From Gammaproteobacteria bacterium (GTDB taxonomy: Bacteria > Pseudomonadota > Gammaproteobacteria > Steroidobacterales > GCA-2729495), in assembly GCA_020853135.1 (NCBI GenBank), contig JADYZO010000005.1, forward strand, positions 422-64,421: 64,000 bases of DNA, written 5' to 3'. The position numbers and the translations under genes are program-made. Of this stretch, positions 60,493-64,000 are shown piece after piece. A model generated the notes under the pieces. It was not told where the DNA came from, did not search any database, and worked only from the letters and a program-made list of their open reading frames with translations. Position 1 is the first letter of the stretch. Each line of letters opens with the position of its first letter.

Positions 60493-61278
60493 ATGGGTAG
60501 CATCCGGACGAGCGTCGCCCTGGCGGCCGCATCAGTCATCCTGTGCGCCAGCGGCACCGCGCTGGCGACACCGATCTACACCAGCTGGGGTTCGCTGCCG
60601 GGCGCAACCTTCGGCGGTACGGGCATCCCGAACACCTCGGTTGCGAAGACCGAAGTCTTCGTCAACGGCTCGACCACCGTCACGCTCGCGCTGACCGCTC
60701 ACGCGCGTTACTCCAACCCCACGGTGACCGACAACGGCGCCGGCGACTATTACGCCGGGCCGGGCAGCAACTGCGGCATCGCGACCGATCCGGTCGGCTG
60801 TCCGAGCGCCACGCAGGGCGCGTTGTGGAACGTGGGCTACTACATCAGCGTCTCGGGCACAGATCCGAACTTCAACGACTTCGGCGACTTCACCTTCACC
60901 GTGTACTACGACTTCGATCCGGGTGCGGGCACGGCCTTCGGCAGCCTGGGCAGGATCAACGTCAACAACATGTTGATTGCCAACAGCATCAACCCCGCGA
61001 CCACAACCCTGGCGCAGGGCTCGGAGAACATGATGTTCTCCTACCTCGCCACTCCGGTGCCGTTCGTGGTCACGCCGCCGACCTATGGGGCGTTCAACCC
61101 CAACTCGCTGGGCGAGTACAACTTCTACATCGGCTTCACGGCGAACAACCTGCCCGCCTTCAGCGGCGCGGTGGGCGTTGACGTCAATGTCGTGCCGGTG
61201 CCGGGAGCGGTGTGGCTGCTCGGCTCGGGCCTCGGCCTGCTCGGCTGGGTACGTCGTCGGGCCAGCCAGGTCGCCTGA
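60493..61278 (+). CDS. PEP-CTERM (VPxP variant) exosortase-target surface protein
   Basis: Signal peptide, Thr/Asn/Gly-rich body, C-terminal VPVPGAVWLLGSGLGLLGWVRRR (motif, TM helix, basic tail). Confidence 0.9.
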   Translation: MGSIRTSVALAAASVILCASGTALATPIYTSWGSLPGATFGGTGIPNTSVAKTEVFVNGSTTVTLALTAHARYSNPTVTDNGAGDYYAGPGSNCGIATDPVGCPSATQGALWNVGYYISVSGTDPNFNDFGDFTFTVYYDFDPGAGTAFGSLGRINVNNMLIANSINPATTTLAQGSENMMFSYLATPVPFVVTPPTYGAFNPNSLGEYNFYIGFTANNLPAFSGAVGVDVNVVPVPGAVWLLGSGLGLLGWVRRRASQVA

Positions 61279-62444: not shown

Positions 62445-62486
62445 TTGATATTTGCCAAGTGCCGCTGCAGCCGGAATCCGTAGAAT
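62445..62486 (+). promoter_or_regulatory. Candidate FNR/CRP-family class II promoter
   Basis: TTGAT-ATTT-GCCAA (62445-62458) and -10 TAGAAT (62481-62486) place the box centre at about -41.5. Confidence 0.5.
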
Positions 62487-62511
62487 CGGCCCCAGCAGTT
62501 AGGAGACTGAC

Positions 62512-64000
62512 ATGAAGCTATCGGTGCTGCTGTGGGGCATCCCGCAGGCCATGCGGGCGGCGGCCAGGGTGTACCCGGAATACGCCGAGCGCCTGAAGGA
62601 ACGCAACCTCGTGGCGCAGTTCCGGCTGCGCGACCGGCCGGTGGGCCGCTGGATCCAGCTGGAGAATGGCCGCATCCGCACCAAGGCCGGCATCCACCCC
62701 AGGCCGGACCTCGACATCCACTTCAAGAACCAGGCCATCGCCGAGAGCTTCCTCACCCCCCCGGTGGACCTGCTCGAGCGCATCGACGCCGCGAAGAACT
62801 TCAAGATCGGCCTCGAGGGCCCGGACGACCTCGCGGTGTGGTTCATGGCCACCCTCACCCGCCTGGAAACGGTAACCTGGAAGGCCGGCACCGACATGGG
62901 TAATGGGGTCACCCGCTACACCAACGGCACCAACGGCGGGCCGATCTTCGTCTACGTCAAGGATGGCAGGATCATCCGCACCACGCCCATGGACTTCGAG
63001 GCGGATGACGCACCGTCCTGGTCGATCACCGCGCGGGGCAGGACCTTCACGCCGCCGCGCAAGGCCACGCTGGCCCCCCACGCGCAGTGCCAGAAGTCGA
63101 TGGTCTATTCGAAGAACCGCATCCTGCACCCGATGAAGCGGGTGGACTTCGATCCGGATGGCAACCGCAACATCCAGAACCGCGGCAAGTCGAAGTTCGT
63201 GCGCATCAGCTGGGAAGAGGCGCTCGACATCGTCAGCAAGGAGATCAAGCGCGCCAAGGCGGTGGGTCCGGGCGCCGTGTGCGTCGCCAACGGTTCGCAC
63301 CACCAGTGGGGCAACCTCGGCCATTACCTCTCGGCCTTCAACCGCTTCTGGAACCTGATCGGCGTCACCAAGCTGGTGCACAACCCCGACAGCTGGGAAG
63401 GCTGGTTCTGGGGCGCCATGCACCACTGGGGCAACAGCCTGCGGCTGGGCTGCCCCGAGTTCTACGGCACGGTCGAGGACTGCCTGAAAGAGGCGGAGAT
63501 GATCGTGTTCTGGTCCAGCGACCCGGATGCCAACTACGGCTTCGAGGGCACGCAGCGCCGCGCCTGGGCCAAGGAACTCGGCATCAAGATGGTGCACGTC
63601 GACCCGTTCTACAACCACACGGCGGGACTCCTCGGCGGCAAGTGGATCTCGCCGAAGCCGGGCACCGACGCGGCCTTCGCCCAGTCGCTCTGTTACGTCT
63701 GGATCACCGAGGGTCTCTACGACAAGGACTTCGTCGAGAAGCGAACCACCGGCTTCGACGAATGGCGGGCCTACATCCTCGGCGAGACCGACGGCGTGCC
63801 AAAGACGCCCGAGTGGCAGGAGAAGGAAACCGGCGTGCCGGCACGCGAAGCACGCGCGCTCGCCCGCGAGTGGGGCAGGAAGAAAACCTACCTCGGCGTC
63901 GGCGCCTGGGGCATGGGCGTGGGCGGCGCCTGCCGCGGCCCGATGGGCATGCAGTGGGCACGCATGATGGCCATCCTCGGCGCCATGCAGGGCTTCGGCC
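62512..64000 (+). CDS. DMSO-reductase-family molybdoenzyme, pyrogallol transhydroxylase large-subunit-like, with extra N-terminal domain; 3'-truncated by the window edge and absent from the ORF track
   Basis: Hand translation open from ATG 62512 (SD AGGAG) to the window end: GGPIFVYVKDGRIIRTTPMDF, APSWSITARGRTFTPPRK, SHHQWGN, HNPDSWEGW, AEMIVFWSSDP, GGACR. Confidence 0.88.
   Translation, partial: MKLSVLLWGIPQAMRAAARVYPEYAERLKERNLVAQFRLRDRPVGRWIQLENGRIRTKAGIHPRPDLDIHFKNQAIAESFLTPPVDLLERIDAAKNFKIGLEGPDDLAVWFMATLTRLETVTWKAGTDMGNGVTRYTNGTNGGPIFVYVKDGRIIRTTPMDFEADDAPSWSITARGRTFTPPRKATLAPHAQCQKSMVYSKNRILHPMKRVDFDPDGNRNIQNRGKSKFVRISWEEALDIVSKEIKRAKAVGPGAVCVANGSHHQWGNLGHYLSAFNRFWNLIGVTKLVHNPDSWEGWFWGAMHHWGNSLRLGCPEFYGTVEDCLKEAEMIVFWSSDPDANYGFEGTQRRAWAKELGIKMVHVDPFYNHTAGLLGGKWISPKPGTDAAFAQSLCYVWITEGLYDKDFVEKRTTGFDEWRAYILGETDGVPKTPEWQEKETGVPAREARALAREWGRKKTYLGVGAWGMGVGGACRGPMGMQWARMMAILGAMQGFG

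Follow-up and report, generated by a model that had tools for sequence, protein, structure and literature searches.

We analysed a 64,000-nt stretch of a gammaproteobacterial genome (assembly GCA_020853135.1; hereafter, the window), the last part of which holds the beginning of a gene for a molybdenum enzyme. The protein that it encodes is the catalytic (alpha) subunit of a cytoplasmic two-subunit enzyme in the dimethyl sulphoxide (DMSO) reductase family, within the branch formed by AthL/BthL, the transhydroxylase of Pelobacter acidigallici, and by the resorcinol hydroxylases. The alpha subunit carries an additional N-terminal domain with a predicted SCP2 fold, and this fused form is not unique to the window: it belongs to a very large variant of the AthL/BthL type that is uncharacterised. 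Most homologues in aerobic or facultative bacteria share a distinct architecture, which combines the SCP2 domain with an altered active-site pocket and a beta subunit with two iron–sulphur (Fe-S) clusters, and the substrate of the SCP2-fused clade is probably not pyrogallol.

An ATG at position 62512 of the forward strand opens a frame that continues unbroken to the end of the window, where 496 codons have been read and the gene is cut. The window corresponds to positions 422 to 64421 of contig JADYZO010000005.1 (C5), which itself stops 51 nt further on, and the remainder of the alpha gene lies outside the window, on C5 and on a second contig (C79). The last 127 nt of C5 form the start of the reverse-complemented C79, an overlap found on no other contig, and joining the two gives an open reading frame (ORF) of 987 aa for alpha. 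Homologues of 985–987 aa cover this joined ORF at 100%, with identities of 75–94%, which confirms the join. The assembly break thus falls inside the alpha gene, and a shared end of 127 nt is typical of a k-127 assembly-graph junction. We also considered Met129 as the true start of the protein and ruled it out, given that the preceding 128 residues are kept in hundreds of homologues; this start is also contradicted by the Shine–Dalgarno sequence before ATG 62512, and position 129 is Val or Pro in some homologues. Because the first cysteine of alpha is residue 193, there is no N-terminal Fe-S motif, and no twin-arginine motif is present. An earlier note on this DNA, made from the letters alone, had described the uninterrupted frame and the lack of both a twin-arginine translocation (Tat) signal and an N-terminal cysteine motif, and both observations hold; its positions for Met129 (62896–62898), Ser262-His263 (63295–63300), and Ser294 in HNPDSWEGW (63391–63393) are exact.

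The assignment of the catalytic part rests on domain, sequence, and structure comparisons. Pfam identified PF21423 (AhtL-like_1st) at residues 143–197 (E 6e-29, above the cut-off), together with PF00384. In a PDB search, residues 133–975 of alpha aligned with residues 4–869 of AthL (4v4c_A) with an E-value of 5.8e-280 and 934 bits, while the best reductases in that search, which were trimethylamine N-oxide (TMAO) and DMSO reductases, reached about 234 bits. The identity to P. acidigallici AthL is 50% over 873 columns. The AlphaFold model of a protein that is 94% identical to the window protein (P0002; predicted local distance difference test score (pLDDT) of 82 and predicted template modelling score of 0.84) superposes on 4v4c_A with a template modelling (TM) score of 0.93 and a root-mean-square deviation of 2.2 Å; for DMSO reductases, the TM score is 0.85, at about 25% identity. 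No NCBIfam model reached its cut-off, with bisC_fam scoring 309 against 1018 bits, torA 239 against 1465, and dmsA 267 against 778. The resemblance to AthL that the earlier note had recognised from Met129 onward is therefore real, and the protein does not group with the DMSO, TMAO, or biotin-sulphoxide reductases, a placement that the note had raised against its own assignment.

For the active site, we compared the window protein with a set of 84 long forms, that is, alpha subunits carrying the N-terminal SCP2-fold domain, using AthL residue numbers checked on the PDB-search alignment with 4v4c_A. The window protein and essentially every one of the 84 long forms retain H144, H145, W147, D174, S175, W176, E177, Y404, and Y560. 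In the AthL structure, described in 2004, Ser175 is the molybdenum ligand and the His, Asp, and Tyr residues are catalytic. In the window protein, the AthL pocket residues Y152, R153, H154, W354, and P562 are replaced by H, Y, L, V, and H, respectively; each of the 83 long forms tabulated has Y or W at the equivalent of R153, and that of W354 is V or L in the clade. Thus, the Tyr152/Arg153/His154/Trp354 pocket that strictly marks a pyrogallol–phloroglucinol transhydroxylase (EC 1.97.1.2) is absent from the window protein. Judging from these substitutions, the pocket of the long forms is less polar than that of AthL, with the chemistry-bearing residues retained.

Residues 1–128, which the earlier note had suspected of being an SCP2-type module, are conserved from residue 1 in every homologue inspected, and models and weak profile matches in relatives both point to the SCP2 fold. 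Pfam gave no match for these residues of the window protein, and PF02036 was not reached even at E ≤ 10; among 21 family members, weak PF02036 matches were obtained in 7 (best E 0.023, below the gathering score) and Alkyl_sulf_C matches in 2. The AlphaFold2 (AF2) pLDDT of the domain is 80 when it is modelled alone and 87–95 in the full-length model, in which helices span residues 3–20, 22–29, 74–81, 87–95, and 105–120 and strands span residues 33–39, 45–51, 54–59, 67–71, and 99–102, giving the element order alpha-alpha-beta4-alpha-alpha-beta-alpha. When the domain model was compared with the PDB using Foldseek, the top 36 matches were all SCP2 domains, including the C-terminal domains of alkylsulfatases (PisA1, SdsA1, and YjcS; E 1.6e-5), AF1534, UbiJ-SCP2 (TM 0.59–0.65), and the SCP2 domains of insects, yeast, and human.

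A phmmer search with the N-terminal domain against 1.84 billion representatives returned 349 matches, and every match that we read runs on into the catalytic start, GT.M.DG..RYTN.TNGGP. Given this continuation, the short matches of 130–150 aa are contig-truncated fragments, and we dismissed them as free N-domain proteins; a further match, P0240, is a spurious eukaryotic repeat protein. We saw no stand-alone N-domain among the matches read and met the domain only in fusion with AthL-like catalytic domains. Its conservation, at 35–95% identity across several phyla, suggests a ligand-binding role. In the literature consulted, we found nothing linking SCP2 to this enzyme. Two unusual proteins were seen along the way. 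One is P0233, a metagenome protein of 730 aa from JGI, in which the SCP2 domain and the first ~190 AthL-like residues of alpha are followed by PAS, histidine-kinase, and receiver domains, and which is an assembly chimera or else a genuine fusion. The other is a tblastn match to alpha in Sinorhizobium terangae (NZ_CP121660.1, 793841–794935; 67% identity) that begins only at query residue 137; some rhizobia may have a short form lacking the SCP2 domain, or the N-terminus may have diverged.

The earlier note had considered that the absence of a following beta subunit would count against it, and one does follow beyond position 64000. On C79, an ORF of 284 aa overlaps the alpha stop codon and combines Fer4_11 with a CarboxypepD_reg-like C-terminal domain; it matches BthL (4v4c_B) with E 3.9e-73 over residues 4–276, and alpha and beta adjoin in all 87 loci read. 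Four of the cluster cysteines of BthL are replaced in this protein (C23, C126, C129, and C145 by V, W, D, and A), leaving 8 of 12, and this beta subunit is accordingly predicted to lack one [4Fe-4S] cluster. Among 55 betas of the long clade, 45 have W126/D129 and 10 retain all 12 cysteines, and these 10 come from Desulfobacteraceae, Desulfopila, Desulfofustis, other Thermodesulfobacteriota, Dehalococcoidia, and a metagenome-assembled genome of Actinomycetota, all of which are lineages of anaerobes. A FastTree phylogeny of the 84 long alphas, with AthL as the root, gathers the cluster-less forms in one clade of 74, dominated by proteobacteria and with a Shimodaira–Hasegawa-like support of 100; the complete forms are basal, and a single change on the tree is enough to account for the loss. 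By homology to proteins of the NarH/FdnH type, we take the four lost cysteines to be the ligands of the second, or middle, cluster. With these ligands gone, the electron relay from molybdenum to the protein surface should be interrupted in beta.

The architecture is not a peculiarity of the window and belongs to a very large clade with generic annotations. Protein searches listed 120 matches each, nearly all of 966–1053 aa, and the only names that these carried were “molybdopterin-dependent oxidoreductase,” “TMAO reductase,” and “pyrogallol hydroxytransferase large subunit.” When one genome per species was scanned, relatives turned up in at least 593 genomes, and the best 80 of these all begin at query residues 1–3, save three that are clipped by a contig end, so they carry the SCP2 domain. 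Isolates with the fused form include Burkholderia stagnalis, B. ubonensis, several Paraburkholderia, Trinickia dabaoshanensis, Ensifer sp. R-19, and Pseudomaricurvus alkylphenolicus, and in Paraburkholderia hospita, Cupriavidus oxalaticus, Ensifer canadensis, and Salipiger abyssi the gene is carried on megaplasmids. Closer to the window, all 15 sampled genomes of its genus and all 25 of its family (2.3–3.6 Mb) have the alpha gene, and within the family alpha identity drops steadily from 93% to 73% with taxonomic distance; in other families of the order, it was found in 3 of 16 genomes.

Upstream of alpha, an alignment of 220 nt from 9 genomes of the window's family revealed only three conserved elements: a box of the form TTGAY-N3-TTG-N-CAR, the hexamer TAGAAT about 22 nt beyond it, and the Shine–Dalgarno sequence (Table 1). 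The box and its spacing to TAGAAT are kept in 9 of 9 genomes, with or without a VOC gene upstream, and in several family genomes the box is a good TTGAC-N4-GTCAG palindrome. Its spacing of 30 nt to the −10 hexamer rules out a −35 role, and its centre would lie about 41.5 nt upstream of the presumed transcription start. The genome encodes a regulator of the FNR/Anr type with C-x2-C-x5-C and ETVSR motifs, along with a second one that lacks cysteines and is FixK/Dnr-like. In the window's family, the alpha-beta operon is probably induced at low O2.

Table 1. Positions of the alpha gene, its signals, and its upstream neighbour in the window
Feature	Position	Strand	Basis or remark
Two-domain VOC/glyoxalase-family protein, 330 aa	61435..62427	+	Pfam PF00903; upstream of alpha
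CRP/FNR-family (FNR/Anr-type) box TTGATATTTGCCAA	62445..62458	+	2 mismatches to TTGAT-N4-ATCAA
−10 hexamer TAGAAT	62481..62486	+	Nearly invariant in the 9-genome upstream alignment
Shine–Dalgarno AGGAG	62501..62505	+	6 nt 5′ of ATG 62512; GGAG invariant in the 9-genome upstream alignment
Predicted N-terminal SCP2-fold domain, residues 1–128 of alpha	62512..62895	+	AF2 model, Foldseek
AthL-like molybdenum bis(molybdopterin guanine dinucleotide) catalytic part, start (residues 129–496; runs on to 987)	62896..64000	+	Pfam, PDB match
His263-His264 (AthL His144-His145)	63298..63303	+	Invariant in 84 long-form alphas
Asp293-Ser294-Trp295 (AthL Asp174-Ser175-Trp176)	63388..63396	+	Alignment with AthL

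The genes around alpha and beta differ among lineages. The VOC gene adjoins alpha in the window and in 8 near-clade loci, and we found no close relative of the upstream VOC protein with a solved structure. On the other side, 26 nt after beta and on the same strand, there is a gene for a 528-aa FAD_binding_4 flavoprotein of the VAO/PCMH type (C79 8244–9830, −); no orthologue of it was found beside alpha-beta in the other 86 loci, so that among these loci it is confined to this genome. It is followed by a convergent CN-hydrolase (nitrilase-superfamily) gene (C79 7068–8234, +), and a CN-hydrolase gene is also found near alpha-beta in the Candidatus Foliamicus group (6 loci; for example, L008 13937–15061). 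Otherwise, in the relatives of the window, the pair lies among unrelated genes. A richer context is found in B. stagnalis, where a divergent TetR gene precedes an operon with the order VOC protein, fumarylacetoacetate (FAA) hydrolase, acyl-CoA synthetase, OmpW, alpha, and beta. This layout, co-directional, with a gene for a hypothetical protein between TetR and VOC and with alpha-beta last, is repeated in 7–9 loci of Burkholderiaceae. We take the Burkholderiaceae VOC protein to carry an extradiol-dioxygenase signature, and the operon reads as one for the uptake of a hydrophobic compound, the modification and cleavage of its ring, C–C hydrolysis, and activation of the released acid. Marine Rhodospirillaceae loci add an ATP-binding cassette transporter, MsrA, a VOC protein, and IclR, and those of Xanthobacteraceae add TctC and DoxX.

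Two candidates were discarded: an ORF of ~200 aa “after beta” in 20 loci is a frame-shadow that overlaps beta and not a gene, and a link to the sorgoleone catabolic cluster was dropped, as no molybdoenzyme is mentioned there. Elsewhere in the window, positions 60493–61278 (+) encode a secreted protein of 261 aa with a PEP-CTERM-like C-terminal sorting motif (VPGAVWLLGSGLGLLGWVRRR). The genome also has two paralogous type-II alphas of the DMSO-reductase family with Tat signals (C86:11060–12640, +, and C48:7283–8863, −), whose open frames comprise 931 and 939 aa with a NarG/EbdA-like N-terminal cysteine motif; the one on C86 lies ~8 kb from a gene for a CRP-family regulator.

Taking these observations together, we propose that the enzyme, independently of O2, transfers a hydroxyl group on, or hydroxylates, a polyphenol whose hydrophobic tail is held by the SCP2 domain, a reading to which we give about an even chance of being correct. 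The SCP2 domain would hold a hydrophobic polyphenol, for example a lipid resembling an alkylresorcinol or acylphloroglucinol, by its alkyl, prenyl, or acyl tail and would present the ring to the molybdenum site, where a hydroxyl group would be added or moved without O2. With the middle relay cluster lost, the chemistry would probably be redox-neutral or use a co-substrate at the molybdenum site, with no electrons leaving through beta, and the product would pass to a ring-cleaving enzyme of the VOC type. In the window's family, the operon would be read from the FNR/Anr-type promoter and induced when O2 is scarce and oxygenases fail. The earlier note had proposed an O2-independent aromatic hydroxylase or transhydroxylase with a module for hydrophobic substrates, quinones, or membrane docking; the AthL-like catalytic part, the SCP2 domain, and the beta subunit agree with it, but the lost cluster argues against a hydroxylase that relays electrons in the manner of resorcinol hydroxylase (RhLS) or 3,5-dihydroxybenzoate hydroxylase (DbhLS).

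Several points weigh against our proposal. The long clade has no member with a known substrate, activity, or ligand; the proposal also presumes that the SCP2 cavity faces the substrate funnel, and the identification of the lost cluster as the middle one comes from homology reasoning and not from a structure. In the window's own family, alpha-beta sits in housekeeping-like neighbourhoods, accompanied by a VOC gene at most, and the evidence for a catabolic operon comes from relatives that are just 56–58% identical. As for the promoter, the box of the window carries 2 mismatches; among 22 near-clade loci read upstream of alpha, only L023 has it, and scanning 83 relative loci for the pattern gave no match. 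Since, apart from L023, it was not found upstream of the relatives' alpha genes, we infer low-O2 induction for the window's family only.

Other functions could be imagined for the same set of features. An ordinary transhydroxylase for soluble polyphenols, converting pyrogallol to phloroglucinol, in line with present annotation of the KEGG type, and using the SCP2 domain as a structural or membrane-tethering element, would explain the 50% identity to AthL and the retention of all the catalytic residues, the loss of the relay cluster would fit its redox-neutral reaction, and a 2026 preprint already reads marine SAR116 homologues as PgthAB. Nevertheless, the whole clade has other residues in place of those that surround pyrogallol in AthL (R153, H154, Y152, and W354), neither a phloroglucinol reductase nor any other downstream-pathway gene was seen near alpha-beta in the loci read, the OmpW and acyl-CoA synthetase genes of the Burkholderia context point to a lipophilic substrate, and the conservation of the SCP2 domain suggests that it binds a ligand, so we consider this explanation rather unlikely. 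It is also conceivable that the enzyme is a net hydroxylase like RhLS and DbhLS, with the SCP2 domain acting as a built-in adaptor that binds a quinone or docks to the membrane and so takes up the electrons. UbiJ-SCP2, which binds quinone intermediates, is among the closest stand-alone SCP2 structures, and the activities of RhLS and DbhLS are membrane-associated and have no known anchor. The beta subunits of the clade, however, lack the four cysteines of one cluster, which should break the relay from molybdenum to the surface, and that relay is kept only in the long forms of anaerobe lineages; we therefore regard a net hydroxylase of this kind as decidedly unlikely.

The link to quinones can be taken further, to an O2-independent, FNR-induced ring hydroxylase for ubiquinone intermediates in hypoxia, which would be the molybdenum counterpart of UbiU/V with a carrier like UbiT or UbiJ fused to it. 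The presence of the gene in every sampled genome of a family with small genomes, outside catabolic operons there, would be in line with such a role, as would the conserved FNR-type promoter and the UbiJ-like fold. The phyletic patterns of Ubi genes are suggestive in this regard: U32 (UbiU/V) genes are absent from 38 of 41 genomes of the order, this one among them, and 13 of the 25 genomes in the family (among them this one and two closed ones) have one flavin Ubi hydroxylase and no Coq7, while each of 16 sister-family genomes has two Ubi flavin hydroxylases in tandem as well as Coq7. A region with a Ubi-type flavin hydroxylase lies outside the window at C46:26983–28134. Yet the molybdenum enzyme co-occurs equally with complete and reduced sets of Ubi hydroxylases, and the remaining flavin enzyme may be of the multi-site UbiM/UbiL type, which would be a simpler explanation of the loss. 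Furthermore, the operon around the Burkholderia homologues is clearly catabolic, the active site is made for polyphenols, and net hydroxylation needs an electron outlet that a broken Fe-S chain does not offer. We thus think that a role in quinone synthesis is very improbable, even though, if true, it would add a third, molybdenum-based solution to the flavin or di-iron hydroxylases and UbiU/V/T, and it would explain why the gene is found in every sampled genome of the family, why half of them have shed UbiH/UbiI/Coq7, and why the order lacks UbiU/V.

The identity of the substrate matters beyond this genome, as labels such as “TMAO reductase” and “pyrogallol hydroxytransferase” have already been used in studies of marine and soil genomes to infer polyphenol turnover, and the architecture occurs in at least several hundred species. 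If the enzyme does work on phenolic lipids without O2, as we propose, these species would have an unrecognised low-oxygen route for the degradation of compounds of the alkylresorcinol and acylphloroglucinol types, and the enzyme would be the first in which a lipid-carrier domain feeds a molybdenum site. Given that the hosts include culturable Burkholderia, Paraburkholderia, Ensifer, Cupriavidus, and Pseudomaricurvus, the question is directly testable.

Among known systems, the closest is AthL/BthL (PgtL/PgtS) of P. acidigallici (EC 1.97.1.2; PDB 4v4c, 4v4d, and 4v4e), with which the window enzyme shares the fold (TM 0.93, 2.2 Å), the Ser ligand of molybdenum, the equivalents of H144, D174, Y404, and Y560, the absence of a Tat signal and of an FS0 cluster, and an adjacent beta subunit with a ferredoxin part and a C-terminal immunoglobulin-like domain. 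It differs in the extra SCP2 domain of 128 aa, in the replacement of R153, H154, Y152, W354, and P562, and in having 8 instead of 12 cluster cysteines in beta. The hosts differ as well: AthL/BthL belongs to a fermenting anaerobe, whereas the host of the window enzyme is a proteobacterium with O2-dependent Ubi flavin hydroxylases and, therefore, probably uses O2. The literature also places RhLS of Azoarcus/Aromatoleum anaerobium and DbhLS of Thauera aromatica AR-1 in the AthL-like branch of Ser-ligated MopB enzymes; they hydroxylate the ring of meta-diphenols without O2. They need an electron relay, which has apparently been lost in the beta subunit described here. No Thauera or Aromatoleum record appeared in the cluster names, the profile search with the long forms of anaerobes, the genome scan, or the plasmids. 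DorA, TorA, and BisC have the MopB fold, the Ser ligand, and the absence of an FS0 cluster in common with the window enzyme, but they are only ~25% identical to it and have no beta subunit. As for the N-terminal domain, UbiJ-SCP2 (6h6n, 6h6o, and 6h6p), the C-terminal domain of SdsA1/PisA1 (2cfu and 2yhe), and SCP2 itself have the same fold, with a Foldseek probability of 1.00, E-values of 1e-5 to 1e-3, TM scores of 0.5–0.65, and identities of 8–18%. Alkylsulfatases also fuse an SCP2 domain to a catalytic domain, in which it helps to recruit the hydrophobic substrate; there the domain is C-terminal, while on the molybdoenzyme described here it is N-terminal.

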